This document shows positions 14,301 through 46,375 of a stretch of DNA of 64,000 nucleotides, one piece after another. The stretch spans positions 38,322 through 102,321 of the forward strand of contig CAZHFN010000002.1 in the NCBI GenBank assembly GCA_964531105.1, in the 5' to 3' direction. The position numbers and the translations under genes were made by a program. The notes under the pieces are model-generated. The model was not told the DNA's origin, searched no databases, and was given only the letters and a program-made list of their open reading frames with translations. The DNA comes from an uncultured Treponema sp. (lineage in GTDB: Bacteria; Spirochaetota; Spirochaetia; Treponematales; Rectinemataceae). Each line of letters begins with the position of its first letter. Position 1 is the stretch's first letter.

Positions 14301-15072
14301 TGAATTCGAAGCCAAAAGAGAGATCGAGACCCAGATCCTGGAATGAAGGACTCCAAAGATCCAGCCCCATATCGAGGTTCCAATAATAATTCTGGACAAG
14401 GTAGCTCCTCATGCCCAAACCCAGTGTGAATGCGGAGGGATAGGAGCCCGCAGCACCGCCTAAAATTCCCGTAGTCCCTGGAGTCGAATATCCCTTGCCC
14501 ATATCCAGCAGGGAAAAGCCAAAGCGCGTGTCTTTGAAGGCTCCCAAATCGCCGGCTAGCCAGGTAGCGCCCAAATCCAGGGAAAGCCCCCAGCCGAAAC
14601 CACCCTTACCTCCCATGGTGAGGTCGATGGCGCTGCCAATGTAGAGGCTGGGAAGAATATCCTTGGAAAATATCGCGGTGAGTCCGCCAAAGGTGCCCAA
14701 GGGCATGCTGGACATCGCGCCGGGTACCGAGAAGAACCGCGCTGCGCCTCCCCACACGCCATAGCTGCGGGGAAGAGAAAAGGCCAGAGACGCGGCAGAA
14801 CCCCAGCCCTGGGCTGCGGCTCCGAAGTCGGTGATACCGGTATACGCCGCTTCCAACTGCACAAGCTGGTTGCCGGCTGTCACCGATGGATTCAATAAGG
14901 CTGCCCATGGAGCTGAAGGTCCTGTCACCGTCGGTGTGTGGGCCAGTCCCCAAGGCGAATAGAGGGAGGGAAGAAAGACTCCACCCTTGGGCGGGTTGTA
15001 CCCGAACAGGGGAACTGCGCCGAGCATGACGATAATCAGAATCGCAATCCGAATCTTCTTGAAAAAGGACAT
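8341..15072 (-). CDS. Giant envelope protein: predicted N-terminal beta-barrel + 16 FlgD-Ig-like repeats + C-terminal OmpA-like peptidoglycan-binding domain
   Basis: 2243 aa. Signal-like start MSFFKKIRIAILIIVMLGAVPLFG. About 340 aa Gly/aromatic-rich with alternating hydrophobicity. 16 units of about 100 aa each carry (F/I/M)SP(N/D)GDGxxD ... W(D/N)G ... PDG.Y ... D.AGN. C-terminus RIEGHANNV ... LSTGRAELV ... NRRVEFVLI is an OmpA_C signature. Confidence 0.85.
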   Translation of the reverse strand: MSFFKKIRIAILIIVMLGAVPLFGYNPPKGGVFLPSLYSPWGLAHTPTVTGPSAPWAALLNPSVTAGNQLVQLEAAYTGITDFGAAAQGWGSAASLAFSLPRSYGVWGGAARFFSVPGAMSSMPLGTFGGLTAIFSKDILPSLYIGSAIDLTMGGKGGFGWGLSLDLGATWLAGDLGAFKDTRFGFSLLDMGKGYSTPGTTGILGGAAGSYPSAFTLGLGMRSYLVQNYYWNLDMGLDLWSPSFQDLGLDLSFGFEFRNIVALRLGWSAGLRDILNGSGRSFLPSLGISGTIPLEKGIQLGGKKNRDASLGIGMAIAPMYDSLYALGAGANLSFGLRDRTAPVIKAELPAPYRGTVHISPNGDGEQDKLEIPVSISDERYIAGWKLTVEDKSAGRIVRTIGESNDRVESIQSLGSLGSALAYQRKSVSVPTSVSWDGLDDLGARVRDGSYTLSLRAWDDNGNENLDYLSCLTVVVDSTTPQASARSLEPTMILSPDGDRKKDSIAFRNTGSVESGWKIEIFDINGNLVRSREYADRSAPADFEWDGTANDGSRAPDGSYSLKLSAKDDAGNPAQSEVRNIIVDTRRPQVSIATDGVVMSPNGDGISDSLLIIPAFESFENLSSWEVAVHNPEKTKVWRVWGGADSPPEKSYTFSGFSEAGQAFADGQYEALVSYEYRNGYGETKFSSPFYMDRTPPSATVKLADENTIFSPDGDGARDGFVFAFDSSEEDTWNLIIRDSRKNEKVVRRYSQNLPESLEWNGKDDQGRVVPDGEYEMYVFAVDRAGNSFAVSSAPVRVDTRRPASGLRLDREAFSPNGDGIAETLTISPQVETLEGLSDWRFSIVGNEGPGKEVLAHPKATGEILADRYVFDGKAGSGSALPDGTYKARLELAYINGFSSIVESSVMVLDRAYPSAEAKSAQVAFNPSGTPEQAVLRIEQKGSSEELWSAAILNSAGIKVKTWEFQGSPAALDWDGKGDNGFLVPDGTYRYVVSSTDKAGNAFSSKELGFEVDTLKKELRLAADNLAFSPNGDGVRDNLILSADATSSSRLQSWKMWIIAGTSAVATGESKAVRSWQGATVLPRNFEWNGQSDVGIAVPDGEYSAIMSLAYPNGDRAETTVGPFTVDRIAPRATVSLSAKLFSPNDDGILDAITFAQEALTPVDAWEATISSAGGEVLRTWSWDKALEALVWDGRDSSQAIVADGTYYYELKSTDAGGNSYSSSRLPVSVETEKKAVRLDIDQRAFSPNGDGQRDELGIGIIIQAPERVKDYELAIMAQDGQAALSAVRTWRGTGSAPQRIQWRGETDSGVQAPDGRYAATIRVNYLNGDQIDAPTPSFLLDRIAPKIEVAATLDIISPNGDGRSDSVEIRQNSLPGDDWQASIKAQDGRVVKTYSWKNEAKGFTWDGRDETGAIVRDGKYRYQAEAVDQAGNRTLSREMLIAVETEKKTVRLDADAQAFSPNGDGKRDRLLMGVRAQYPERIKNFELLIVQSGSGDSSLPVKSWKGSSDIRTQYYWDGFTDSGIPAPDGSYYARLRVLYSNDDLHTQEIGPLVLDRIAPQATLRLSTSIFSPNGDGRSDTVDIIQEAVPGDLWQGQIIDSSERIVRYWTWEGSLPLVSWDGRNQAGGQAPDGKYFYELRSIDQAENSFVSARLPIEVDAASKAVRLEVDQRAFSPNGDGVKDSLYINIAAPKPQSIAEFEIAVFSLNATGSRQSSPVKAWRGRADIRDQYVWDGRTDSGIMAPDGEYQVAARILYSNDDLFNLASPKVLIDTVGPRISVSAAPMLFSPNGDGNKDTITITQNSSLGDDWTGRMRNAAGTVVRSWTWKNEARSFVWDGKDTAGRVVGDGVYSYEVGTSDLAGNAASARVGGIRVDASTARVYVTASDTGMSPNGDGIRDEVSFTIIVEKREGIESWRFSLLDPEGVERSFFGGSGSDVPARLVWDGRDLQGQVVQGEYVGKLVVTYEKGDVAQATSLPVLVDVDPPSVSITVRPEYFSPDDDGMDDRLTFGIEVDSSAGVVDWKLEVFETAVVESSNPNAVSSERLFASWDGKGKPPAAITWDGKSPKGELVESATDYRFSFVARDQLGNSTEVSGIIAVDVLVIRDGDRLKIKVPSIVFRANYADFVGLSAEIVARNEQVVARIAQILNKFPDYRVRIEGHANNVAKMLGYSQARIQTEETKELIPLSTGRAELVRTMLVGNGVDPRRLSVEGLGSSEPVVSFFDVENRWKNRRVEFVLIKNQ
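9450..12030 (-). repeat. Four tandem about 645-nt (about 215-aa) di-domain super-repeats inside the giant gene
   Basis: Two Ig-unit types alternate. The A unit follows V(E/D)T(E/L)KK.VRL and ends LDRIAP; the B unit ends VETEKK or VDA. A-type SPNGDG codons sit near 11985, 11335, 10690 and 10045; B-type near 11640, 10990, 10350 and 9700. DNA copies are diverged (about 70% identity by eye). Confidence 0.7.
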
Positions 15073-28700: not shown

Positions 28701-30284
28701 ATGGAAAAGAGCAAAGCCTTTCATTGGGCGGATCAGACCGCCGACACAATAATCAAGACCTGGGGCGACAAGGAACTTTACACCTGTGCCTCGGGTATTA
28801 CCCCTTCGGGCACTGTCCATGTGGGCAATTTTCGCGAAATGATATCAGTGGAGCTCGTTGTGCGCGCCCTGAGAGACAAGGGTAAGAAAGTCCGCTTTAT
28901 CTATAGCTGGGATGATTACGATGTATTCCGTAAAGTCCCCCTCAATATGCCTAAGCCCGAAATGCTCGAGTCCTACCTCCGCCAGCCCATAACCCTGGTG
29001 CCCGACCCTTGGGGGAGAGACTCCTCCTATGCCAGGCATCATGAAGTGGATGTGGAATCGGTATTGCCGCACGTGGGAATAGCTCCCGAGTTTCTCTACC
29101 AGGCCGAGCGCTACAGAAAGGGCATGTACGCCCAGGGCATGCGCCGGGCCTTGGAAATGAGGGAACACCTCAAGACGATTCTGGATAAATACAGGGACGA
29201 GGACCATAAAATTCAAGGTGAATGGTGGCCCGTCTCGGTATTCTGCTCGGCCTGCGGCAAAGACACTACGGAAGTTGATGGCTGGGATGGGGATTGGGGC
29301 TTGAGCTACCATTGCGAATGCGGCCATAGCGAGACAGGGGATCTGCGAAGCCTCAAGGGCGCAAAACTCGTCTGGAGAGTGGATTGGCCCATGCGCTGGA
29401 ACTTCGAACAGGTGGATTTCGAGCCCGCTGGCAAGGATCACCATTCTCAGGGCGGCAGTTTCGATACATCCAAACATGTGGTAGAGGAAGTATACGGCCG
29501 CAAGCCTCCAGTAACCTTCCGCTATGATTTTATAGGCATCAAGGGGTCTCCTGGAAAAATGTCCTCCTCCAAGGGCAAGGTTGTGGATCTCCCCGACCTC
29601 CTCAAGGTCTACCAGCCCGAACTGGTGCGCTATCTCTTCGCCGGCACTAGGCCCAACACCGAGTTTGTGATCAGCTTTGACCTGGATGTCATCAAGATTT
29701 ACGAAGATTACGATAAAACCGAACGAATCTATTGGGGAATTGAAAAAGCCAAGGATACCGACGCTGAGGCCAAGGAAAGGAGAATATACGAACTCTCCCA
29801 GGTAGACGGCGTGCCCACCGAAGCACCCTACCAGGTCCCCTTCCGCCACCTATGCTCTCTCCTTCTTATCCACCAGGGCGATGTGGAGGCGGTGCTTTCG
29901 GCCCTGCCCGGCTTGAAACCGGTTCAAGAAGCTAGAATTCGCTCCAGGGCAGAGCGGGCTTGGTACTGGATCAATGAATGCTCTCCCGACGATTTCCGCT
30001 TCAGTGTGAGAAAGCCAGGTGAAAAAGCCGAACTCTCGGAACTCGAGCTAGCGGCCCTCATTCACCTGCGCGACGATGTCGTGGCCCGGCTCGAGGATTT
30101 TGCCGATGAAAAAGCGGTAGCTGCTGCTATCTACGACGCTGCGGCCGCAGCGGGAATCGACGGCAAGACACTGTTCAGAGCAGCCTACCAAGCCCTGGTG
30201 GGCAAAGATCAGGGGCCGCGGTTGGCGGGGTTCCTGGGTACCCTGGGCAAGGAAAAGGTCCTGGCCATACTAGCCCCTTATTGA
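28701..30284 (+). CDS. lysK: Class I lysyl-tRNA synthetase
   Basis: 527 aa. PSGTVHVGNFREM (HIGH-like), KMSSSKG (KMSKS), and the Zn-knuckle-like CSACG ... CECGH insertion seen in class I LysRS. Confidence 0.92.
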   Translation: MEKSKAFHWADQTADTIIKTWGDKELYTCASGITPSGTVHVGNFREMISVELVVRALRDKGKKVRFIYSWDDYDVFRKVPLNMPKPEMLESYLRQPITLVPDPWGRDSSYARHHEVDVESVLPHVGIAPEFLYQAERYRKGMYAQGMRRALEMREHLKTILDKYRDEDHKIQGEWWPVSVFCSACGKDTTEVDGWDGDWGLSYHCECGHSETGDLRSLKGAKLVWRVDWPMRWNFEQVDFEPAGKDHHSQGGSFDTSKHVVEEVYGRKPPVTFRYDFIGIKGSPGKMSSSKGKVVDLPDLLKVYQPELVRYLFAGTRPNTEFVISFDLDVIKIYEDYDKTERIYWGIEKAKDTDAEAKERRIYELSQVDGVPTEAPYQVPFRHLCSLLLIHQGDVEAVLSALPGLKPVQEARIRSRAERAWYWINECSPDDFRFSVRKPGEKAELSELELAALIHLRDDVVARLEDFADEKAVAAAIYDAAAAAGIDGKTLFRAAYQALVGKDQGPRLAGFLGTLGKEKVLAILAPY

Positions 30285-34600: not shown

Positions 34601-34744
34601 AGTAACTCCTTGGCTTCATACTAGCAGATAAGGCTGAAGCCCGCCATGCGGGATAAATAAATTTTCAATTTGCAACCCTGCGGTGCTTCTCGAGACCTGG
34701 CGGGCTTGTCGTTATTCCTTTGCTGCGGCATATTTCACACACTG

Positions 34745-35746
34745 ATGAATATTGAGTTCCACTACTATGCCCTGTACTACCTCTGCCGAGCCTCCGGTTT
34801 TCCCGAGGACGAGGCCTTAAAAATTGCCATTTCCAGCCAGATGGTGGACGAAAACCTCGCTGCCTGGGAAATCCAGGAGGAGAACAAAGCGGAGCTGACG
34901 ACTATCACCCAGAATTATCAATTCTGGGATGAGCATAGCGCCAAGGCTATTTACAGGCCCTTTCATTTTATCCCCGGCGACAGGCAAAAAGCTGGACTGA
35001 GGAGGAGGGATGGGATAGCGGGAAAAAATCCGGTAACTGAGGATTCTGGTACTGCACGGCAAATACTCATCGAAGCGCTAAAAATCCAAAACCCCTACAG
35101 GATTGGGATTGCCCTTCATGCCTACGCTGACACTTGGGCGCACCAGAATTTTTCAGCCGATATGGAATCCCAGAATACAATAGACAGCCGATCGCCCCTT
35201 CCCCCAGTGGGCCACCTCCAGGCTCTGAAGAATCCCGATATTCCCAGGGGAAGGTGGAGCGACCCGCGACTGGTGGATGAATTATGTACGATATACAACG
35301 CCCAGCGCTTTTCTCAAGCCGCAAAAATGATCTATCGTTTCCTTGCGACATCCAGAAAAAAGGGCTTTGAGGACGAGATTTTCGTAATCGGCAGGCTGGA
35401 TGAACTCTGGGAATCCTCCCCGGAGAAAGCCGATGACCAAGCCAGGGCTTCTGATTATATTATCGAGTTCGATGTGCCTCCCTACGAGCCTGAAGTCTGG
35501 GCACTCGGCTCGGGTGGCCATATCAGGGATGGGCTTGGCCGTTTAGGCGGTGTTTCGAGTCTTGGGTACGACAGAATCTCCTGGCTCAAGAATGCCGCCA
35601 GAAAGGCTTCATCAGCCTTTGGATCTTACAGGGGTAGCATCCCCACGTCCTCATATAGAGGCTCACGCTTCCAAGCCTGGAACGAGGCAGCGAAGGACCA
35701 TCTCGAATACTGCACACAGGTATTCACACAACGAGGTATTGCATGA
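34745..35746 (+). CDS. Uncharacterised His/Asp-motif protein (Zn-dependent phospholipase C-like pattern)
   Basis: Start at MNIEFHYYALYYL. Motifs FHYY, PFHFIPG, LHAYADTWAHQNF (H-x3-D-x3-H) and VGHL. No signal peptide. Confidence 0.55.
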   Translation: MNIEFHYYALYYLCRASGFPEDEALKIAISSQMVDENLAAWEIQEENKAELTTITQNYQFWDEHSAKAIYRPFHFIPGDRQKAGLRRRDGIAGKNPVTEDSGTARQILIEALKIQNPYRIGIALHAYADTWAHQNFSADMESQNTIDSRSPLPPVGHLQALKNPDIPRGRWSDPRLVDELCTIYNAQRFSQAAKMIYRFLATSRKKGFEDEIFVIGRLDELWESSPEKADDQARASDYIIEFDVPPYEPEVWALGSGGHIRDGLGRLGGVSSLGYDRISWLKNAARKASSAFGSYRGSIPTSSYRGSRFQAWNEAAKDHLEYCTQVFTQRGIA

Positions 35747-36777
35747 AACGCGGAATCGGCAGGCCGGAGAGCCTGCGTACCATCTTGATCTCTTTGCTTG
35801 CGGCGTTACTAGCCGCCGGCTGTGCCCTCATACCCGAAGAAGTTACCCGAAGCGAACCTTCGGCCTATCTGGAATACGCTCCCCAAATCTATGCCAGATT
35901 TTCAGGTCGAGCCTTGAGAGACCTCACGGGAAACCTGGATGACCAGGAGTTGAGTGCCCTATTTTCCAAGGCCATGCCTACAAGCACCGATAGTCAGGCA
36001 TCGTCCCAGGCTCAGGGTTCGGCAGGAAAGGCCGCAGCCTCTGAACCTACGGCCAATGCAGCCTTTGTAAGAGAATTCTTGAGCAAGACAACTACTTTCG
36101 GAACAGGGATCAGAGGCCTGAGTACCCAGAAACTCATGGCTGAGGCTATATTTCTCGGCCAGTTTTCTCCCATCTCGCTGCGCATTGCCCTTACCATGGA
36201 GGGCAATTGGGAACGATTGCAGGATGGAGGGTATAAATCAGCCCAGTATCCCCTTTATCTTCGTTCTCCCCAGGCTGGCTGGGTACACCTCTCCACCGAG
36301 TCCGCTCCAGGGACCAGACAGGAGGCGATTCTGGCCTATCCTCGTCCAATGGAGTCAATTGCGTCATCAGATATCTTTATCAGCATAAACGAGCCCAGGA
36401 TCCTTTTCGCCGGAACCCTGCCACTGGAAGCTTCCGCGATTCCCCTGGAAACCGTGCTCATGGCCGGGAGTCTGGTGGAGCCCAATGCCTTGGCGATTCA
36501 GGCTTCAGCGCCTTCTTCGCCCCTGCAGGCAGATCAGCTATTCCGGAACTATCGAGTGGATCTTTACATCGTGGTAAAGGACGAGGCAACAGCACGAGCA
36601 TATAGGCCCGTTGTGCGCTTTCTATGGGCTGCGGCAGCTTCCCGCTTATTTCCCGGTAGGAGCGATATAGCTTCTTTGCCTTTAAGTCTCGAGGGTGCAG
36701 TCTACGTGGTGCGGGGTATTAGCTTGAGCAAGTCCGATATCCAGGGGATGATCCTTTCCAGTATGGCCAACCCCTAA
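35743..36777 (+). CDS. Lipoprotein of unknown function
   Basis: Lipobox LLAAGC at aa 21-26. ATGA start/stop overlap with the upstream gene. Confidence 0.6.
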   Translation: MKRGIGRPESLRTILISLLAALLAAGCALIPEEVTRSEPSAYLEYAPQIYARFSGRALRDLTGNLDDQELSALFSKAMPTSTDSQASSQAQGSAGKAAASEPTANAAFVREFLSKTTTFGTGIRGLSTQKLMAEAIFLGQFSPISLRIALTMEGNWERLQDGGYKSAQYPLYLRSPQAGWVHLSTESAPGTRQEAILAYPRPMESIASSDIFISINEPRILFAGTLPLEASAIPLETVLMAGSLVEPNALAIQASAPSSPLQADQLFRNYRVDLYIVVKDEATARAYRPVVRFLWAAAASRLFPGRSDIASLPLSLEGAVYVVRGISLSKSDIQGMILSSMANP

Positions 36778-38910: not shown

Positions 38911-39807
38911 CTAGACCCCGGACCAGGGCTGGTTCATATTGTAGCGGAAGAGTATTTCCAGCTTATCCCGTATTCCCTCCGTGGGAAGCACGAGGGTAAT
39001 AGCCCTGTTCTCTCTGAAATCGGTACTAGAAGGCGTACCTACTACGCTTTTTTCCATAAAAACAGGGACTTCCAGGCTCCGAATTCTTTGGAGATAGGGG
39101 GAAAAGCTGCCTCTCACCTGTCTTCGGGCAACGTGGATAGAATGGCTGAATTCCACGCCCGAAAGCGAGGCCTGCCGCCTCCATACCCTCAAGTCTTCCT
39201 CCAGAAAATCCGTGGCAATGGGCAGGACGTCGGAACCGATGAGATGGGTAAGTTCTAGTTTCATGCCTGTATGCATGGCAATAAAACGACGCACAATTTC
39301 TATCGTGTCAGCATTGGCCCCTATATCCAAAGGCAAGATGAATGGCTCGAAGAGCCCCGTTAGCTGCATCTTCATTATCTGGTAGCGAAAGGAATAATCG
39401 GTTTTGCGGGGTTTTCCTTCGTTCTGCGAGCCTTCAGGCACTACAATGAGAATGTCCGATCTACTCATCGAGGAAGCCAGAAGCCTGAGGGCTATGGTGA
39501 GGTGGGTTAGCTGGAATGGGTCGAAGGATCCGATGTAGAGGGCTACTCGGGCGACTCCTCCGGGATACCTGACAATCCGCGGATAGTCCCTTGTATCCAG
39601 TGGGTGGATGTCGCCTTTTGCGGCTTTAACGTCTATGTCAAAAAGCGCTTTAACAATGCGTTGTTCATAGTAGCTGTAGTCGTGCAACTCGCCTGGGCCC
39701 AAGTAGCCAACATGAGGAAGGGATTCAAAAATCTTCTTGAGACGCCTGGCCAGTAACTCTACTTTGGGATTGGAGAATTTGGAGGGCCAGAGACAGGGGA
39801 AATACAT
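38911..39807 (-). CDS. NadD-like cytidylyltransferase-fold protein with degenerate HxGH motif
   Basis: YIGSFDPFQLTHL occupies the place of GGxFDPxHxGH, and SSTDFRE fits the ISSTxIR motif. Start set at MYFPCLW (GAGGAG 7 nt upstream). The ORF extends to 39924 through A/T-rich sequence. Confidence 0.5.
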   Translation of the reverse strand: MYFPCLWPSKFSNPKVELLARRLKKIFESLPHVGYLGPGELHDYSYYEQRIVKALFDIDVKAAKGDIHPLDTRDYPRIVRYPGGVARVALYIGSFDPFQLTHLTIALRLLASSMSRSDILIVVPEGSQNEGKPRKTDYSFRYQIMKMQLTGLFEPFILPLDIGANADTIEIVRRFIAMHTGMKLELTHLIGSDVLPIATDFLEEDLRVWRRQASLSGVEFSHSIHVARRQVRGSFSPYLQRIRSLEVPVFMEKSVVGTPSSTDFRENRAITLVLPTEGIRDKLEILFRYNMNQPWSGV

Positions 39808-39991
39808 ATTTGTTCTCCTCGAAGCCCTCGATTCCTCGGATCCATCCATTACATCAGTATTCCTTGAAAATTGGAAAAAGGCAAATAAAAAATAAAAGCA
39901 TCTTTTAAGTATATTTTTATCCAATTATGTCTTAGGTAATGCGATCAATAAATATATTTTTAATTTATCTGATTTTATCGATATTTTTTTC

Positions 39992-40020
39992 TTGACAAAC
40001 CAAAACAAGCCTCGTATTCT
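39992..40020 (+). promoter_or_regulatory. Sigma-70-type promoter of the hydrogenase operon
   Basis: TTGACA (39992-39997), 17-nt spacer, TATTCT (40015-40020), preceded by an A/T-rich tract. Interleaved inverted repeats ATTCT/AGAAT and GTTCC/GGAAC (40016-40039) overlap the -10/+1 region. Confidence 0.5.
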
Positions 40021-40092
40021 GTTCCCTAGAATCCGGAACCACCGTTGTACCTGCAGTCCTGCGCATCGGTTCAATTAGGACAAGGAGGCCGT

Positions 40093-40608
40093 ATGCAAAC
40101 GACCGCTTCCAGGCAATCGAGTCCCGGCATCGAAAAAATAATCCATACGTACCAAGGGACGCCAGGAGCGCTGCTTAAGGTTCTTGAGCACGTTCAGGAA
40201 GAGGATCCGAAACACTTTCTTTCGGAAACCTCGCTAAGAGAAATCTCGGGATTGATGAAAATCCCACTGTCCCAAGTATATTCCATGGCCACTTTTTACT
40301 CCTTCTTCAATCTTAAACCCCAGGGCAAGCACTCCATAGTAGTTTGCCGCGGGACGGCCTGCCACACCAGAGGTTCATTATCCCTATTAAACGAAGCCCT
40401 GGCACGAATGGGTATACAGGAATTCAAGGAAGAAGAGGAAAATTCAGCTACAAGCCTGGACGGATTCGCATCCATACGCACCGTGGCTTGCTTTGGCCAG
40501 TGCGCCTTGGCACCGGTAGTGCAGATCGACGGGGTGGTAAAGTCCAGGATGACCATAGGTAAATTGGTCACCATCCTGGAAAAGATGAAGAAAGGAGGGG
40601 ACCGATGA
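40093..40608 (+). CDS. hydC: NuoE/HydC-like [2Fe-2S] subunit of [FeFe]-hydrogenase
   Basis: Start at MQTTASRQ (AAGGAGG 5 nt upstream). Thioredoxin-like 2Fe-2S motifs CRGTACH ... CFGQCALAP. Confidence 0.88.
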   Translation: MQTTASRQSSPGIEKIIHTYQGTPGALLKVLEHVQEEDPKHFLSETSLREISGLMKIPLSQVYSMATFYSFFNLKPQGKHSIVVCRGTACHTRGSLSLLNEALARMGIQEFKEEEENSATSLDGFASIRTVACFGQCALAPVVQIDGVVKSRMTIGKLVTILEKMKKGGDR

Positions 40609-43600
40609 AAGCCGTAACCGATCTTGGAAGCCTGAGAAAGGAAGGCCTCTCCCATGTCTTCAACGGAAAGCCCTGGGTTTCTGTTGGTCTGGGCACCTGT
40701 GGTATAGGTAACGGAGCCGATGAAGTTTTTGCGGTTCTCCAGGAAGGCGTAAAGACCGATAAACTGGATGCCAGGGTGCGCAGAGTGGGATGCTTCGGCT
40801 TCTGCGCCGCCGAACCTATTGTGATGATCTACAGGCCAGGCAAGCCGGTGCTTATGTTCTCCGAAGTAAAACCACTCAAAGCCCTATCGCTCCTCAAAGC
40901 CTTAGCCGATGACGCTGCATTCGATAAGGCCGCCAAACTGGCTGAGGCTAAAATAGAATCCTGGGATTTCAGGACTCATTCTCTTTCCTTTGGTGAAGCG
41001 TACCCTTTCCTCCCCTCCTGGAAAGAACTGGCTTTCTTCAAGGGCCAGGAAAAGCTCGTGCTACGAGACTGTGGACTGATCGATCCTGAACAAATCGAGG
41101 AGTATGTCGGAGTAGGCGGCTATACTGGCTTGCTCAAAGCCCTCTCCACCATGACCCCCGACTCGATAATCGAGGAACTCAAAAAATCAGGACTACGGGG
41201 AAGAGGAGGCGCTGGCTTTCCTACGTGGAAAAAGTGGCGGATCATGCGGGACAATGTCCTGGCGAATCCCGGAGAGGCCTATGTCATATGCAACGCCGAC
41301 GAAGGCGATCCGGGCGCCTACATGAACCGCAACGAAATCGAATCGGATCCCCATATGCTCCTGGAAGGCATCATCATTGGCGCCTATGCCATGGGCGCTA
41401 CCAAGGGCATTGTCTATGTGAGAGCTGAATATCCCCTGGCAGTTGAACGCTTCACTAAAGCCCTTGCGCAGGCAAGGGCTGCAGGTCTCCTGGGAAAGAA
41501 TATTCTGGGCAGCAAATTCAGCTTTGACCTGGAAATAGTGACCGGCGCAGGCGCCTTTGTCTGCGGCGAGGAAACCGCCCTCATAGCCTCTATCGAAGGC
41601 AAGGCCGGCAGACCTTCGCCCAGGCCTCCCTTCCCCGCCCAGCAGGGCTTGTACGGAAGACCCACCACAATCAACAACGTCGAAACCTGGTGTAATATCC
41701 CCCTCATACTTGCCCGGGGCGGTGAATACTTCTCCTCCTTCGGGACAGCCAACAGCAGGGGTACCAAGGTGTTCTCCTTCGTAGGCAAGGTGCGCAACAC
41801 GGGCCTCGTGGAGCTACCCATGGGCTCTACACTGGAGAGTGCCGTATACGGAATCTGCGAAGGCATGGGTCCTAAAAAGAAAATCAAGGGTCTCCAGTCC
41901 GGCGGACCATCAGGAGGATGCATACCAGCCTCCCTCTTCAAAACACCCATCGATTATGAACATCTCACCGAATTAGGCGCCATTATGGGGTCAGGCGGCA
42001 TGGTGGTCATGGATCAAGATAACTGCATGGTGGACGTTGCCCGCTACTTCATCAGCTTTACCGCCAACGAATCCTGCGGCAAGTGCACTCCCTGCCGGGA
42101 AGGCACTTCCCAGATGCTGAATATTCTCCAAGGCGTGTCCAACGGGGAAGCCAGCGAACAGGATTTGAAAACCCTGGAATCCCTGGCCTTGGCGGTCAAG
42201 GACTCGGCCCTCTGTGGTCTAGGCCAGACGGCAGCCAACCCAGTGCTTACCACGCTCAAGTATTTCAGGGACGAATACATCCAGCATATCAAGGCCAAGC
42301 GCTGTCCTGCCGGTATTTGTGAAAACCTCTACGTGGCGCTCTGTGAATCCTCCTGCCCCATGCATATGAACATTCCCGGTTATCTCCAACTTCTCAAGGA
42401 GAACAGAATAGAAGACGCATTCGAACTCACCTTGCGGGAAAATCCCTTGCCCGGAGCCTTGGGCAGGATATGCCACTTCCACTGCCGAATGCGCTGTAGA
42501 AGGGACATGCTGGACGAATCTGTGTCCCAGGGCGAGATCCACCGCTATCTGGCCGACTCCATGTACAAGATGGGCAGGGAAAAGACCATCTACAACAAGC
42601 TCATCAAGGAGAAATTGCCTCCCACAGGCAAGAAAATTTCCATTGTAGGCGCCGGTCCTGCGGGACTTTCGGCAGCCTTTTGGCTGAGTCGCTTAGGCCA
42701 CGAGGTTACTGTTTACGAGGCTGAACAGGAAGCCGGAGGCATACTCCGCTGGGGAATCCCCTCCTACAGGCTCCCCAAGGACATTCTCAAGAAGGAAATA
42801 GCCTTCATACAAAAACTAGGTCCTCGATTTATCTTCAATACGAAGATGGAAACTCCCGATCAATGGCAGAGGCTGCTGGACGCATCGGATGCCGTTGTAG
42901 TGGCAGTAGGCGCAGGGCACGAGATAGCCTTGGGCATACCGGGTGAAGATCTGAAAGGGGTTTTTGGAGCAGGGGATTTCCTTAAAAAAATAAGCGAAAA
43001 CCAGAAACCGAAAGTAGGAAGCGAGGTGGTCATTGTCGGCGGAGGCAATTCCGCCATCGACGCAGCCCGCTCTGCCCTAAGACTGGGGGCTTCGGTCACT
43101 ATCGTGTATCGCAGAGCCAGGTCCGATATGCCGGCCAATGCCGAGGAACTCAATGGAGCACTAGAGGAAGGAATCACCGTCCTCTGCATGACCCAGCCTG
43201 TGGAGGTTGTAAGCCAGGGCACAGGGACTGCCCAGCGGGTTAAGGCGCTGAAGGTCCAGCGTATGAAGGCGGGTCCGGTGGACAGTTCTGGCCGTCCTAC
43301 CCCAGTGCCCACCAGTGAATTCTATGAAATACCCTGCGATTCAATAATCGTTGCCTTTGGAGAGAAAGTGAGGATCCCCGGCCTGGAAAACCTCGAGGTA
43401 ACCATGGAGAGGGACGGAAGGCTCAAGGTCGACCCCTACTCGCTAAAATCGGCCAATGACAAGCTCTTTGCCTGCGGCGACGCGGTGATGGGACCTGCCA
43501 CGGCCGCAGAAGCCATGGGGCAGGCCAGGGTGGTATCGGAAGTACTGGATGAAAGCCTTACAGGCCAAAAACGTTTCTTCAAGCTCTTCCGGCATTTCGA

Positions 43601-43805
43601 CTACAAAATGGAAGTGCCTAATAAACTCACCAAAGCCAAGATGATCAGAGCAACCTTCATACCGGTGGATGCACGCAAGAACAATTTTATGGAAATCTCC
43701 CTGGGATATACGGGGGAACAGGCCAGAATAGAGGCCGACCGCTGTCTCCGCTGCGATGTCAGGGATCGAAAGCGCGAAACCTACAGCGCACCGGTAGAGG
43801 AATAA
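40605..43805 (+). CDS. hydB: NuoF/HydB-like flavoprotein fused to a GltD/NfnB-like FAD/NADPH oxidoreductase module
   Basis: 1066 aa. aa 1-130: Trx-like 2Fe-2S (GTCGIGNG ... CFGFCAAEP). aa 135-560: NuoF (GRGGAGFPTWKKW, ESCGKCTPCREG). aa 565-985: GltD-like (CESSCPMHMNIP, GRICHFHCRMRC, IVGAGPAGLSAA, IVGGGNSAIDAA ... VYRR, FACGD). Confidence 0.88.
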   Translation: MKAVTDLGSLRKEGLSHVFNGKPWVSVGLGTCGIGNGADEVFAVLQEGVKTDKLDARVRRVGCFGFCAAEPIVMIYRPGKPVLMFSEVKPLKALSLLKALADDAAFDKAAKLAEAKIESWDFRTHSLSFGEAYPFLPSWKELAFFKGQEKLVLRDCGLIDPEQIEEYVGVGGYTGLLKALSTMTPDSIIEELKKSGLRGRGGAGFPTWKKWRIMRDNVLANPGEAYVICNADEGDPGAYMNRNEIESDPHMLLEGIIIGAYAMGATKGIVYVRAEYPLAVERFTKALAQARAAGLLGKNILGSKFSFDLEIVTGAGAFVCGEETALIASIEGKAGRPSPRPPFPAQQGLYGRPTTINNVETWCNIPLILARGGEYFSSFGTANSRGTKVFSFVGKVRNTGLVELPMGSTLESAVYGICEGMGPKKKIKGLQSGGPSGGCIPASLFKTPIDYEHLTELGAIMGSGGMVVMDQDNCMVDVARYFISFTANESCGKCTPCREGTSQMLNILQGVSNGEASEQDLKTLESLALAVKDSALCGLGQTAANPVLTTLKYFRDEYIQHIKAKRCPAGICENLYVALCESSCPMHMNIPGYLQLLKENRIEDAFELTLRENPLPGALGRICHFHCRMRCRRDMLDESVSQGEIHRYLADSMYKMGREKTIYNKLIKEKLPPTGKKISIVGAGPAGLSAAFWLSRLGHEVTVYEAEQEAGGILRWGIPSYRLPKDILKKEIAFIQKLGPRFIFNTKMETPDQWQRLLDASDAVVVAVGAGHEIALGIPGEDLKGVFGAGDFLKKISENQKPKVGSEVVIVGGGNSAIDAARSALRLGASVTIVYRRARSDMPANAEELNGALEEGITVLCMTQPVEVVSQGTGTAQRVKALKVQRMKAGPVDSSGRPTPVPTSEFYEIPCDSIIVAFGEKVRIPGLENLEVTMERDGRLKVDPYSLKSANDKLFACGDAVMGPATAAEAMGQARVVSEVLDESLTGQKRFFKLFRHFDYKMEVPNKLTKAKMIRATFIPVDARKNNFMEISLGYTGEQARIEADRCLRCDVRDRKRETYSAPVEE

Positions 43806-43815
43806 GGGGGAGACC

Positions 43816-45597
43816 ATGGAAAAGAAAATGACTTCCATAACTGTGGATGGCGTAAAGGTTGAGGTGGACCCCGATCTGAATTTGGTAGAAGCCTGTGCCA
43901 AGGCAGGCGCCAATATACCTACACTCTGCTTTATGAAGGATATTTCATCCAATGCATCCTGCGGTGTCTGTGTAGTGGAAGTGGAGGGAGCCAAGGCACT
44001 AGTGCGATCCTGTGTGCAAAAACCCATGGAGGGCATGAAAATACGAACCGCCAGCCCCAAGGTGATGAGCGCCAGGAGAACAGCGGTGGAGCTTCTTCTG
44101 GCCAATCACCCCGCCGACTGCCTTTCCTGTATTCGTTCGGGCACCTGTGAATTGCGGGTTATGGCCGAAACGTTAGGCGTAAGGGCATCCCACTATCCCA
44201 AGCTCAAGAAATTCCCCCTTCCAGACACATCCTCCGACGGACTCGTGCGAGACGATTCCAAGTGCATCCTCTGCGGCCGCTGCGTAGCCGTATGTGCCGA
44301 AACACAATCCGTACACGCCATCGCGTTTTCGGGCAGGGGTTCCAGAACCAGGGTGGCTACCTTCATGGATAGAGGCCTCGCCAACAGCCCTTGCATACAG
44401 TGCGGGCAGTGCTCGGTGGTCTGCCCCACCGCGGCTATATCTGAAAAAGATCAATCCTCAGAGGTCATGGCTGCCCTGGGCGATCCAAGGCTGCATATGG
44501 TTATCCAGACCGCTCCCGCCATAAGGGCGTCCTTGGGCGAAGCCCTGGGAATGCCCGCAGGAACCCTGGTAACTGGCAAAATGGTGGCCGCTCTGAGAAG
44601 ACTGGGTTTCTCCAAGGTTTTCGATACCCAGTTCACTGCTGATCTTACTATTATGGAGGAGGGAACAGAATTCATTAGCAGGGTCCAGAATAATGGGAAA
44701 ATGCCTATGATCACCTCTTGTTCCCCCGGCTGGATAAATTTTATAGAAACATTCTATCCCGAACTCCTGGACCACCTTTCCAGCTGTAAAAGCCCACAGC
44801 AGATGTTCGGCGCTGTCGCGAAAACTTTCTATGCCGAAAAAGTGGGTATCGATCCGGCATCCATGAGGGTAGTATCCATAATGCCCTGCACGGCCAAGAA
44901 GGGAGAAGCCAAGCGTAAGGAGATGGATTCTGCCTACCATTGGTGGGAAGAAAAAGCCCAGAAGGCTGGAAAAACTTACAGCGCAGCTCATTACCAGGAT
45001 GTGGATTGGGCGCTCACCACCAGGGAACTGGCCAGGATGATCCGCCAAGCAGCCATAGATATGGCAAGCCTACCCGAAGAAGCCTTCGACAATCCCCTGG
45101 GAGAATCCACCGGCGCGGCCACCATATTCGGCACCACAGGCGGCGTCATGGAAGCCGCACTGCGCACGGTCTATGAAATTCTCGAGGGCAAGCCTCTCCC
45201 ACACACCGATTTCATGCCCGTACGAGGCTTGCAGGGCATCAAGACGGCCGAAGTACCGGTGGCGGGCATGAAGGTAAAGGTAGCCGTAGCTCATGGACTT
45301 AAAAATGCCAGAGCCCTTCTGGATGATATAGCCGCTGGCAATAGCAGTTATCATTTTATCGAAGTAATGGCCTGTCCGGGCGGCTGCATAGGAGGAGGAG
45401 GCCAACCTGTGCTGCCCGACATGAGCAAGAAACTAGCCCGCAACAAGTCGCTCTATAATGAAGATCTACGCTTGCCCGAGCGGAAGTCACATCAAAACGC
45501 CGAGGTTAACGCCCTGTATAAGGAATTTCTGGGCAAACCTGCGGGACACCTTTCGCATGAACTTCTGCACACCCACTATGGGGCAAGAGTTGTGTAG
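43816..45597 (+). CDS. hydA: [FeFe]-hydrogenase catalytic subunit
   Basis: 593 aa. N-terminal 2Fe-2S plus His-ligated and 2x[4Fe-4S] domains. H-cluster motifs TSCSPGW (variant L1), MPCTAKKGE (L2) and EVMACPGGCIGGGGQP (L3). Confidence 0.92.
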   Translation: MEKKMTSITVDGVKVEVDPDLNLVEACAKAGANIPTLCFMKDISSNASCGVCVVEVEGAKALVRSCVQKPMEGMKIRTASPKVMSARRTAVELLLANHPADCLSCIRSGTCELRVMAETLGVRASHYPKLKKFPLPDTSSDGLVRDDSKCILCGRCVAVCAETQSVHAIAFSGRGSRTRVATFMDRGLANSPCIQCGQCSVVCPTAAISEKDQSSEVMAALGDPRLHMVIQTAPAIRASLGEALGMPAGTLVTGKMVAALRRLGFSKVFDTQFTADLTIMEEGTEFISRVQNNGKMPMITSCSPGWINFIETFYPELLDHLSSCKSPQQMFGAVAKTFYAEKVGIDPASMRVVSIMPCTAKKGEAKRKEMDSAYHWWEEKAQKAGKTYSAAHYQDVDWALTTRELARMIRQAAIDMASLPEEAFDNPLGESTGAATIFGTTGGVMEAALRTVYEILEGKPLPHTDFMPVRGLQGIKTAEVPVAGMKVKVAVAHGLKNARALLDDIAAGNSSYHFIEVMACPGGCIGGGGQPVLPDMSKKLARNKSLYNEDLRLPERKSHQNAEVNALYKEFLGKPAGHLSHELLHTHYGARVV

Positions 45598-45625
45598 AGG
45601 ATTTCCCGTTTAGATGAGGCAGGCT

Positions 45626-45662
45626 TGGCCGGCCGCCTTTGCTGGACAAAGGCGGCCGGCCA
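45626..45662 (+). terminator. GC-rich hairpin after hydA (terminator-like, no U tract)
   Basis: 16-bp perfect stem TGGCCGGCCGCCTTTG / CAAAGGCGGCCGGCCA with loop CTGGA. Confidence 0.45.
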
Positions 45663-45676
45663 GGCTATATACAAGC

Positions 45677-46375
45677 ATGGCACTACGCGCCCTGGGCTTT
45701 GATTTGGATGGCACACTCTACCCAGCCTGGAGAATGTACTCGGCCTCCGCCTATCTCGCCCTGCACCATGGAGCCTTTCTACGAGCCTTCGGTCAGGCCA
45801 GAAAAGCCCTTCGGAAAAGCAATCCTGCCCAACAAAACCCAGGGAGCATCAGTCAAGAAAGCCTGAAGGAATTCAGGCAGCGCCAGGCTTTCCTTGTCGC
45901 CTCTATACTGAATTTAGATTTTGCAACTACGACCTCCCTCATCGATGAAGTAATCTATGGAAAGGTAGAGCAAAGCTTTTCAAGGATACAGCCTTTCAAG
46001 GGACTTGTTCCCTTTCTGGAAAATCTTGGAGCCTCGGGGTTCCGCCTGGGATTGCTCTCCGACCTACCGCCTAAAAAAAAGCTGACTCTCATGGGACTGG
46101 ATTCTTACTTCCACTGCGCACTCTGCTCCGAGGATTCCGGAACCCTGAAGCCCGACGGGCGGCCATTTCTGGCTCTGGCCGATGCCCTGGGCGAGCAGCC
46201 TGAGTCCATTCTCTATGTGGGGAATAAGGAAGCCTACGATGTCAAAGGAGCCAAGTCGGTGGGTATGAAAACGGCCCTGCTGGGACGCAGTTCCAACTCT
46301 GTAGCCGACTTTAGCTTTCGTCGCTGGGAGGAATTAAGTGCCTGGCTTTTCGAGGGTCCGGGTCACACTCTATAA
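45677..46375 (+). CDS. HAD-superfamily hydrolase
   Basis: Start at MALRALGFDLDGTLY (DxDxT motif I). Motif IV is GNKEAYDVKGA. Confidence 0.8.
   Translation: MALRALGFDLDGTLYPAWRMYSASAYLALHHGAFLRAFGQARKALRKSNPAQQNPGSISQESLKEFRQRQAFLVASILNLDFATTTSLIDEVIYGKVEQSFSRIQPFKGLVPFLENLGASGFRLGLLSDLPPKKKLTLMGLDSYFHCALCSEDSGTLKPDGRPFLALADALGEQPESILYVGNKEAYDVKGAKSVGMKTALLGRSSNSVADFSFRRWEELSAWLFEGPGHTL

Follow-up and report, generated by a model that had tools for sequence, protein, structure and literature searches.

The subject of this work is a stretch of 64,000 nucleotides from an uncultured Treponema sp. (contig CAZHFN010000002.1, positions 38,322 to 102,321), referred to below as the window, and the operon that it carries at positions 40093-45597 of the plus strand. 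Judged from its sequence, this locus is a genuine HydC/HydB/HydA operon, encoding a heterotrimeric [FeFe]-hydrogenase of the HydABC (Bfu) lineage. The unusual subunit is HydB. In this protein, a Bfu-type NuoF core is joined, in one chain, to an NfnL-like module predicted to bind flavin adenine dinucleotide (FAD) and NADPH. With respect to the open-access literature, such fused bacterial HydABC is a new, widespread and biochemically undescribed variant. We favour, with some reserve, the reading that in this variant H2 is connected with NAD(H) as well as with NADP(H), the latter in the place of ferredoxin.

The operon consists of three intact, adjacent, plus-strand open reading frames (ORFs) in our ORF list. 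The first, hydC (40093-40608), encodes a NuoE-like [2Fe-2S] subunit of thioredoxin fold, 171 amino acids (aa) long. The second, hydB (40605-43805), encodes the 1066-aa fused flavoprotein, with its Bfu-type NuoF core and NfnL-like module. The third, hydA (43816-45597), encodes the [FeFe]-hydrogenase catalytic subunit of 593 aa. Note that the ATG of hydB overlaps the hydC stop codon (ATGA), and that hydA starts 10 nucleotides (nt) past the hydB stop, preceded by GGGGGAG.

The N-terminal half of HydB, aa 25-575, is a Bfu/HydB-type NuoF core with its flavin mononucleotide (FMN) loop, B1 cysteines and H-x5-C-x4-C hinge. Pfam identifies Complex1_51K (PF01512) at aa 193-366 (6.5e-46) and NADH_4Fe-4S (PF10589) at aa 477-561 (6.2e-33). 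In addition, the NCBIfam model TIGR01959 matches at 4.6e-140. The core proper (41007-42284, plus strand) holds the FMN/NAD(H) site, GLRGRGGAGFP at aa 196-206, and the B1 [4Fe-4S] ligands C491, C494, C497 and C537. The loop is invariant among HydB homologues, and the four cysteines are invariant in 121 sequences. Together, these matches and invariant residues confirm the NuoF FMN/NADH and 4Fe-4S motifs that an initial annotation, made from the letters of the window, had placed in this half. The core is preceded by a thioredoxin-like domain, the B5 site (40662-40904, plus strand), with three invariant cysteines (C32, C63 and C67). The pattern, C...G / C-x3-C, equals that of the NfnB subunits of Nfn-Bfu. 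In such Nfn-type B subunits, the B5 site contains Zn in Thermococcus sibiricus, and a [2Fe-2S] cluster was modelled there for Sporomusa ovata (PMC12018979).

The core ends in the B2 hinge, H561-x5-C567-x4-C572 with C474 (42285-42320, plus strand), which in Bfu B subunits is a Zn or 2Fe-2S site ahead of the C-terminal domain. The hinge sequence, YIQHIKAKRCPAGIC, aligns to YLAHIEG-RCPAKVC and equivalents; the third cysteine is C474, in DNCMVDVA. The same residues align with HIxxxxCPAxxC in the B subunits of T. sibiricus, Caldicellulosiruptor saccharolyticus, Acetomicrobium mobile, Acetobacterium woodii and S. ovata. Specifically, H561, C567, C572 and C474 pair with H524, C529, C534 and C437 of T. 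sibiricus NfnB. The hinge residues are invariant, or nearly so, in the 121 sequences, and 80 of 80 ORFs that contain both HydB halves have the motif. According to published work, nearly all Bfu B subunits have this histidine (PMC12018979).

Solved structures place this half in the same group. The closest is T. sibiricus NfnB (9n5u_B, 6e-188), followed by C. saccharolyticus NfnB (9bov_B, 8.9e-186), A. mobile NiFe-HydB (7t2r_B, 3.6e-183) and A. woodii HydB (7q4v_B, 1.9e-180). The alignments to these B subunits extend through the hinge. In Foldseek comparisons, the N-terminal half of an AlphaFold2 model of HydB matched Bfu B subunits with target-normalised template modelling (TM) scores of 0.82-0.96. 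The SLBB family (IPR019554/PF10531), part of a published BfuB definition considered below, gave no HydB match at E <= 0.01; it is precomputed for some close homologues, and weak in a second hydrogenase-linked fusion type discussed below. Nevertheless, the SLBB fold is most likely present, because the model superposes on whole B subunits (551 columns, target-normalised TM scores of 0.86-0.95).

Directly after the hinge, at aa 577-1054, is an NfnL/GltD-like module of approximately 480 aa. Here, Pfam identifies Fer4_20 (aa 563-656, 1.9e-21) and Pyr_redox_2 (aa 677-974, 4.6e-35), while the same scan of HydB found no match to a ferredoxin-type Fer4 family. Hence, the domain searches bear out the GltD homology proposed by the initial annotation, and Complex1_51K, NADH_4Fe-4S, Fer4_20 and Pyr_redox_2, all named there for a domain search, are in place. 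The Fe-S domain of the module (42333-42584, plus strand) provides C580, C584, C623, C627, C631 and H646. Together with C1047 and C1050, these residues form a predicted set of eight ligands for two [4Fe-4S] clusters. All eight are invariant, or nearly so, in the 121 sequences and in the surveyed loci defined below; C1047 and C1050 are conserved in 119 of the 121. In the alignments, H646 takes the place of Lys170 of StnC and of the Glu ligand of NfnL, and by homology we infer that it is a cluster ligand. Mutagenesis has shown that this non-Cys ligand position is critical (PMC10482914, PMC12018979).

The FAD and NADPH Rossmann domains follow (42618-43559, plus strand). They contain GAGPAG at aa 682-687, then GGGNSAIDAA, YRR at aa 835-837, and MPA; the first three of these had been picked out in the initial annotation and can now be assigned their positions in HydB. 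The predicted FAD motif, the predicted NADPH motif (GGGNSAIDAAR, YRR and MPA) and the arginine of GIPxYRLPK align with NfnL and StnC, and are conserved family-wide. At the end of the module, a tail at aa 1021-1053, ending RCLRCD (43665-43763, plus strand), matches the N-terminal helix and CxxC of NfnL. The tail, VDARKNNFMEISLGYTGEQARIEADRCLRCDVR, aligns to residues 16-48 of 5jca_L, if weakly (domain E-value 0.41), and falls inside the main alignments to 9bov_A and 8oh5_C. Since the tail matches the N-terminus of NfnL, the module appears to be circularly permuted, as in StnC/NfnA. The initial annotation, which placed a GltD/NfnB-like module at aa 565-985, ended it too early; the module reaches approximately aa 1054 and includes the RCLRCD cysteines.

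Among solved structures, the C-terminal half is closest to C. saccharolyticus NfnA (9bov_A residues 104-570, 5e-103). S. ovata StnC (8oh5_C residues 104-569, 1e-92), T. sibiricus NfnA (9n5u_A, 1e-89), NfnL (5jca_L, 1.5e-83) and GltD (6s6s_G, 5.3e-47) come next. In the Foldseek comparisons, this half of the model likewise matched NfnA, StnC and NfnL. A genuine glutamate synthase can be rejected; models TIGR01317, TIGR01318 and TIGR01316 scored 166.6, 269.4 and 313.5 bits, against cut-offs of 447.7, 482.95 and 471.75. There is also no gene for a glutamate synthase large subunit among the Pfam-scanned ORFs of the window, or among conserved neighbours in related loci.

A protein assembled from two such halves might arise if a frameshift or stop codon had been missed, or if two genes had been misassembled. 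We consider the chance of such an artefact to be practically nil. The junction (nt 42285-42359, aa 561-585) is in frame and the hydB ORF is continuous. In 120 homologue clusters, aa 561-660, covering the hinge and Fe-S ligands, is the best-conserved stretch of HydB, with a mean identity of 85 %; the NuoF core averages 77 % and the Rossmann part 61 %. Since the junction is both in frame and within this stretch, a frameshift or stop is excluded. Furthermore, the exact 1066-aa protein is on record at NCBI, from a 112.6-kb contig, and its 90 % cluster is named as deriving from metagenome-assembled genomes (MAGs) of Spirochaetia. Full-length homologues form at least 120 clusters (1045-1121 aa, 58-91 % identity), all with both Pfam domain sets. 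We found nothing in support of an artefact. The gene is split in 2 of 80 related loci (L002 and L010), and in both this looks like local sequencing error. The NuoF-GltD fusion described in the initial annotation is therefore real. The AlphaFold2 model of the whole subunit has a mean predicted local distance difference test (pLDDT) score of 84 and a predicted TM (pTM) score of 0.73. It is confident overall and weak mainly in short loops, which include the Fe-S ligand loops at aa 573-583 and 629-636. No solved chain covers both HydB halves in Foldseek searches, where the best query-normalised TM score was 0.49.

We then determined how widespread the fusion is beside hydA, a question already raised in the initial annotation. 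An alignment of the junction, aa 555-665, was used to scan one genome for each bacterial and archaeal species. Relatives of the junction were found in at least 498 species genomes, from several phyla. Loci were surveyed for the best 80 of these matches (L001-L080). Among the 80, carriers in Spirochaetota belong to Rectinemataceae, Treponemataceae and Brevinematales. Those in Bacteroidota are Paludibacter, Dysgonomonadaceae, Chitinophagaceae and the isolate Porphyromonadaceae sp. NP-X (L060). The others are Ignavibacteriota, Kryptoniota, FCPU426, Verrucomicrobiota/PVC and one Eubacteriales MAG. Two carrier contigs, L011 and L071, are labelled as MAGs of 'Leptospira biflexa' and 'Synechococcus sp. 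UW140'. These are probably binning or labelling errors, because the enzyme is anaerobic and the sequences are close to Spirochaetia/Ignavibacteriota versions.

The gene order hydC, fused hydB, hydA was found in every surveyed locus with sufficient flanking DNA. Clustering of flanking ORFs identified no further conserved neighbour gene; the next family, in 18 of 80 loci, reflects lineage-specific synteny. Hence, a fixed unit of three genes, in several phyla and with no other conserved neighbour, indicates a self-contained module that has spread horizontally. A conserved accessory gene was also considered, and rejected, since no candidate occurs in more than 18 of the 80 loci.

The remaining subunits are as follows. 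HydC matches 2Fe-2S_thioredx (PF01257, 2.7e-37), and the ligand motifs C-x4-C (aa 85-90) and C-x3-C (aa 133-137) are present. HydA contains Fer2_4, NADH-G_4Fe-4S_3, Fer4_7, Fe_hyd_lg_C (4.6e-99) and Fe_hyd_SSU. The predicted cofactors are one [2Fe-2S], one His-ligated [4Fe-4S] and two further [4Fe-4S] clusters, in addition to the H-domain. HydA also exceeds the cut-off of NF040763, 'NADH-dependent [FeFe] hydrogenase, group A6' (832.6 versus 765 bits), and the best solved relatives are HydA1 of A. woodii (2.2e-175) and of Thermoanaerobacter kivui (1.4e-173). Of the H-cluster motifs, L2 (MPCTAKKGE; consensus MPCxxKxxE) and L3 (EVMACPGGCIGGGGQP; consensus ExMACxxGCxxGGGQP) are canonical. L1 is TSCSPGW (nt 44713-44733, aa 300-306) rather than TSCCPxW, so that a Cys that normally binds the [4Fe-4S] subcluster of the H-cluster is replaced by Ser. 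This Ser also occurs in L1 of A. woodii HydA1, which is fully active (PMC10021017). In the surveyed loci, TSCSP is present in 66 of the 67 HydA ORFs for which an L1 motif was found. Hence, a specific HydA clade accompanies the fused HydB.

The fused enzyme resembles several known systems in part. Like HydABC of Thermotoga maritima, A. woodii and T. kivui, it has three subunits, the same HydA cofactor set and a [2Fe-2S] cluster in HydC. It differs in that the window HydB has no C-terminal ferredoxin-like domain with 2x[4Fe-4S]; the NfnL-like FAD/NADPH module is found there instead. The B5 site also differs, with three cysteines rather than the four of HydABC. In HydABC and NfnABC, the C-terminal ferredoxin-like domain of the B subunit is the ferredoxin site, reached from the C1 cluster by a domain swing (PMC10021017, PMC12018979). 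The same papers agree with the initial annotation, which stated that Thermotoga-type HydB ends in ferredoxin-like 4Fe-4S domains.

The second relative is Stn/NfnABC, from S. ovata, C. saccharolyticus and T. sibiricus. Its BC core, with a three-Cys B5 site, is closest to the N-terminal half of HydB. Similarly, its NfnL-like module, in which the helix and CxxC likewise come last, in the same apparent circular permutation, is closest to the C-terminal half. However, in Stn/NfnABC the module is inserted in a NuoG/Fdh-like A subunit lacking an H-cluster, and the B subunit keeps its ferredoxin domain. There, the module serves as a mid-potential NADPH input, whereas in the window it is part of the B subunit, beside an A subunit that is a true hydrogenase. 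The residue at the non-Cys ligand position differs too, being Lys in StnC/NfnA, Glu in NfnL and His in the window HydB. HydB also scores below the cut-off of NF009454, the StnC-like family (405.9 versus 916). NfnL, SudA and GltD share the two [4Fe-4S] clusters, together with the FAD and NADPH Rossmann domains, but are stand-alone subunits of unpermuted order; in NfnL, the FAD is bifurcating and paired with NfnS.

Two other hydrogenases were compared. Greening et al. 2024 describe an archaeal hybrid of group F [FeFe]- and group 3 [NiFe]-hydrogenases, in which the NuoF-like diaphorase subunit HydB is also fused to a 'glutamate synthase (GltA) domain' (PMC11216029). That complex, known only from models and compared here by its description, differs in having five subunits, with a HydA-HyhS fusion, HyhL and HydD. 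NfnL-like domains have also been remarked in proteins annotated as group A FeFe hydrogenase (PMC12018979). In the HydDB/Greening classification, glutamate-synthase-linked [FeFe]-hydrogenases of group A2 have HydA associated with a GltD-like NADPH subunit, and are not known to have NuoE/NuoF subunits. By contrast, the window module is fused to a full Bfu core, and its HydA belongs to the HydABC-type group by NF040763.

In the definition of Schut et al. 2022, BfuB is recognised by four InterPro domains, one of which is the ferredoxin-type 4Fe-4S domain IPR017896 (PMC9304861). In the window, HydB has IPR011538/PF01512, IPR019575/PF10589 and the B2 hinge, with its His and three Cys. IPR017896, corresponding to the C-terminal B3/B4 ferredoxin site, is absent, and the chain runs on as Fer4_20 and Pyr_redox_2. 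The partners agree with BfuC and BfuA; HydC has PF01257, and HydA has Fer2_4, NADH-G_4Fe-4S_3 and Fer4_7, all encoded in the same cluster. Without the ferredoxin-type domain, the window HydB is therefore not BfuB by the published definition. It is clearly derived from BfuB and probably fell outside the survey of 1558 sequences made by Schut et al. On the strength of the alignments, the better description is a hybrid of HydABC and Stn/NfnABC, because the N-terminal half is nearest to NfnB and the C-terminal half nearest to NfnA/StnC, ahead of NfnL and GltD. The initial annotation had suggested a hybrid of bifurcating and glutamate-synthase-linked hydrogenases. The first parent stands, and the second should be replaced by Stn/NfnABC. 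In the open-access full-text literature, we found no description of a bacterial HydABC with HydB fused in NuoF-GltD/NfnL manner. The words GltD, glutamate synthase and fusion are absent from both Schut 2022 and the Hydrogenedentota paper.

What might the fused enzyme do? In the HydABC and NfnABC enzymes characterised so far, an FMN/B1/C1 site receives the electrons of the A subunit, and NAD(P)+ is reduced at the FMN (PMC10021017, PMC12018979, PMC10482914). The [2Fe-2S] domain of the C subunit then swings to the C-terminal ferredoxin-like domain of the B subunit, and ferredoxin is reduced (PMC10021017, PMC12018979, PMC10482914). The StnC module oxidises NADPH, and passes electrons onward through its two clusters (PMC10482914). 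By extension, in the reading that we favour, electrons from H2 would travel from the H-cluster of HydA, along the Fe-S wire, to the FMN/B1/C1 site. In a first branch, NAD+ would be reduced at the FMN. In a second branch, the mobile [2Fe-2S] cluster of HydC would deliver electrons to the two NfnL-type clusters, and these would pass them to FAD and NADP+. We end the ferredoxin branch at FAD/NADP(H) because the NfnL-type Fe-S domain occupies the position of the ferredoxin domain, directly after the hinge. The net reaction would be 2 H2 + NAD+ + NADP+ <-> NADH + NADPH + 2 H+. In fermentative cells, the opposite direction would apply, and the more reducing NADPH pool would help to pull NADH oxidation towards H2. 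Note that, in the cell, the NADP couple is at approximately -370 mV and the NAD couple at approximately -280 mV, so the former is 80-100 mV more negative. Electrons merged from NADPH and NADH, with a mean of approximately -325 mV, would sustain H2 up to approximately 10^2 Pa, compared to a few Pa for NADH alone. If the reading is true, a fermenter would thus have a plausible gain, smaller than with ferredoxin.

Several considerations weigh against coupling to NADP(H) in place of ferredoxin. The main weakness is energetic; if low-potential electrons go to NADP+, most of the driving force of bifurcation would be lost, and the reason for keeping a bifurcating core is then obscure. Second, the [4Fe-4S] clusters of NfnL form the ferredoxin-facing branch so, by analogy, ferredoxin could dock at this point in the fused enzyme. 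Third, T. kivui HydB uses NADP+ at the FMN site. For that site, the HydABC paper gives only residues Phe205 and Arg340, without an alignment, and we found no literature on NuoF E183 and NADPH specificity. Finally, in locus L062, and apparently also in L046, the fused operon is followed immediately by a canonical NfnS/NfnL pair. Hence, the fusion does not simply replace the transhydrogenase, and coexists with a normal Nfn in some genomes. The pair in L062, within a downstream stretch at 10380-13870, encodes an NfnS-like protein of 278 aa, with DHODB_Fe-S_bind, and an NfnL-like protein of 468 aa, with Fer4_20 and Pyr_redox_2. In L046 (10402-13896), ORFs of the same sizes and with BLAST similarity occupy the same positions; the Pfam assignments are for L062 only.

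Two of the surveyed loci contain further hydrogenase genes. In L062, genes for NuoE-like and small thioredoxin-like proteins come after the Nfn pair, and are probably the start of a second HydABC/Hnd-type cluster. In L055, from a Paludibacter MAG, a second hydrogenase cluster is downstream of the fused operon (11106-14132). It encodes a NuoF-only protein of approximately 406 aa, lacking N- or C-terminal extras, and then a HydA of approximately 602 aa. This cluster resembles the non-bifurcating NADH-dependent type.

Ferredoxin may still be a substrate, docked on the NfnL-type clusters, an alternative that we regard as rather unlikely but the strongest of the alternatives. The complex would then contain a built-in Nfn-type transhydrogenase, possibly with two bifurcating flavins in series. 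The FAD/NADPH site would serve a fourth redox partner, so that H2, NAD(H), NADP(H) and ferredoxin are all linked. The homologous clusters of NfnSL do form a low-potential path to ferredoxin, and the arginine next to FAD (GIPSYRLPK) is present in HydB. However, the same arginine is conserved in StnC, which does not bifurcate, and so does not discriminate. A module loop, HMNIPGY, is closer to HINIPGF of NfnL than to QTDCQGY of StnC. Fermenters that produce reduced ferredoxin also need an outlet for it, and Greening et al. 2024 guess that the GltA domain of archaeal HydB is a low-potential acceptor site, for ferredoxin (PMC11216029). Conversely, the closest relative of the module is StnC, where the module binds no ferredoxin and the FAD is non-bifurcating (PMC10482914). 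Furthermore, the distal cluster may be buried, since it also has to make contact with the HydBC core, and there is no evident second high-potential acceptor beside the FAD, equivalent to the NfnS [2Fe-2S] cluster.

It is distinctly unlikely, in our view, that the enzyme is a non-bifurcating hydrogenase with two independent ports, using NADH at FMN or NADPH at FAD, and so acting as a redox valve. Non-bifurcating NADH-dependent HydAB(C) enzymes exist, and have no ferredoxin-like C-terminal domain in HydB (PMC7311640; Ignavibacterium IALB_0256). Loss of that domain removes the only known low-potential outlet. Even so, the fused HydB keeps invariant features that have been reported as typical of bifurcating B subunits, namely His561, C474/C567/C572 and the N-terminal B5 domain. 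In addition, the attachment point of the NfnL module is exactly the place to which the swinging C1 cluster brings electrons, rather than the HydA wire. It is most improbable that the FAD site acts on a non-nucleotide acceptor such as polysulfide or elemental sulfur, in an H2- or NAD(P)H-dependent reductase; sulfide dehydrogenase (SudA) and NADPH-dependent sulfur oxidoreductase (NsoC) are in the same module family (PMC7483475), but the NADPH-binding motif is conserved family-wide, SudA/NsoC-type sulfur activities are themselves NADPH-dependent, and related loci have no conserved sulfur-metabolism genes nearby.

More broadly, we tentatively raise the possibility that the fused enzymes are an unrecognised Bfu class, with the ferredoxin branch rewired into a second flavin. 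Such a class might be a ferredoxin-independent hydrogenase with obligatory splitting or merging of electrons between the NAD and NADP pools, or a two-flavin machine for H2, NAD(H), NADP(H) and ferredoxin; either would contain a His-ligated [4Fe-4S] cluster. If true, ligation by His646 would be the third natural solution at the non-Cys position, after Glu in NfnL and Lys in StnC. The invariant histidine would also offer a natural test of ligand tuning in NfnL-type modules. Note that it is exactly the ferredoxin-docking domain that has been swapped for an NADPH/FAD module, while other features of the bifurcating core have been kept. Characterisation of the enzyme would show whether a Bfu core works without ferredoxin. 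It would also show how the H2 and NADPH pools connect in the carriers, which are fermentative and sediment bacteria. Furthermore, 'bifurcating hydrogenase' calls in metagenomic surveys of H2 cycling would be reinterpreted, because the genes currently carry no other label than 'NADH-quinone oxidoreductase subunit F' or 'FAD-dependent oxidoreductase'.

Full-length fusions of NuoF and NfnL are not restricted to this type. Among 1.84 billion representatives clustered at 50 % identity, we found approximately a dozen clusters, of which P0140 is the His type. P0141 (L081 5490-10949; also L082-L084) is a second hydrogenase-linked type, 44 % identical, in an operon of hydC, fused hydB and hydA. Its N-terminal domain has four Cys, Lys stands at the non-Cys ligand position, and the type is known from Logan assemblies only. 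More distant NuoF-like/GltD fusions share 33-38 % identity; their FMN and Fe-S motifs are degenerate, and extra C-terminal Cys-rich domains are present in some. The genomic contexts of two were looked up. P0224 (L086 4199-10393) is beside a molybdopterin oxidoreductase and a ferredoxin, outside a hydrogenase operon, and P0148 (L085 312-3482) has no redox partner gene called on its contig. Given the degenerate motifs, and the non-hydrogenase contexts of these two, we rejected the distant fusions as examples of the same system.

Expression signals were read from the sequence of the window. The hydC ORF opens at a TTG (40045), but the ATG at 40093 is the likelier start, since it is preceded by AGGAGG. 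This putative ribosome-binding site (40084-40089, plus strand) is 4 nt before the ATG. A sigma-70-like promoter candidate, TTGACA-17-TATTCT (39992-40020, plus strand; 10 of 12 matches), lies in AT-rich intergenic DNA, approximately 73 nt ahead of the ATG of hydC. It was identified by pattern matching alone. Promoter-like sites in the region number 5, compared to 4.1 expected from shuffling, which is not above chance, and we therefore describe the site as no more than a candidate. Hence, of the initial description of three adjacent genes behind a good sigma-70 promoter, the genes stand and the promoter is downgraded. A terminator scan found no plus-strand terminator after hydA.

A gene for a HAD-family hydrolase (45614-46375, plus strand) starts 16 nt after the hydA stop. 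It may be co-transcribed with hydA, because there is no detectable terminator in the 16-nt gap. A family of similar size, approximately 253 aa, is found at this position in 17 of the 80 loci. Upstream of the operon, 34670-35746 encodes a DUF6765 protein, and two further ORFs (35743-36777, plus strand; 38911-39924, minus strand) have no Pfam hits. An ORF of approximately 330 aa recurs at the position of the latter in 18 related loci, and this looks like lineage-specific synteny, not a component of the hydrogenase system.

The rest of the window is ordinary housekeeping. It includes cysS, murB, ffh, a penicillin-binding protein (PBP) gene, sigma factors, class I lysS, tsaD, adk, dnaE, glmS and hflX, together with genes for a branched-chain amino-acid ABC transporter and an OTCace-family carbamoyltransferase. 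The Pfam-scanned ORFs of the window included no hydEFG, ferredoxin, PFOR, Rnf or Nfn gene, and tRNA and Rfam scans of the window gave no hits. A 2243-aa ORF (8341-15072, minus strand) has FlgD_ig/CHU_C/Big-type Ig-like domains and a C-terminal OmpA domain, and presumably encodes a giant surface protein. The class I lysyl-tRNA synthetase (PF01921), of a form typical of spirochaetes and archaea that would agree with the Spirochaetota origin to which the best protein hits point, is encoded at 28701-30284 on the plus strand.

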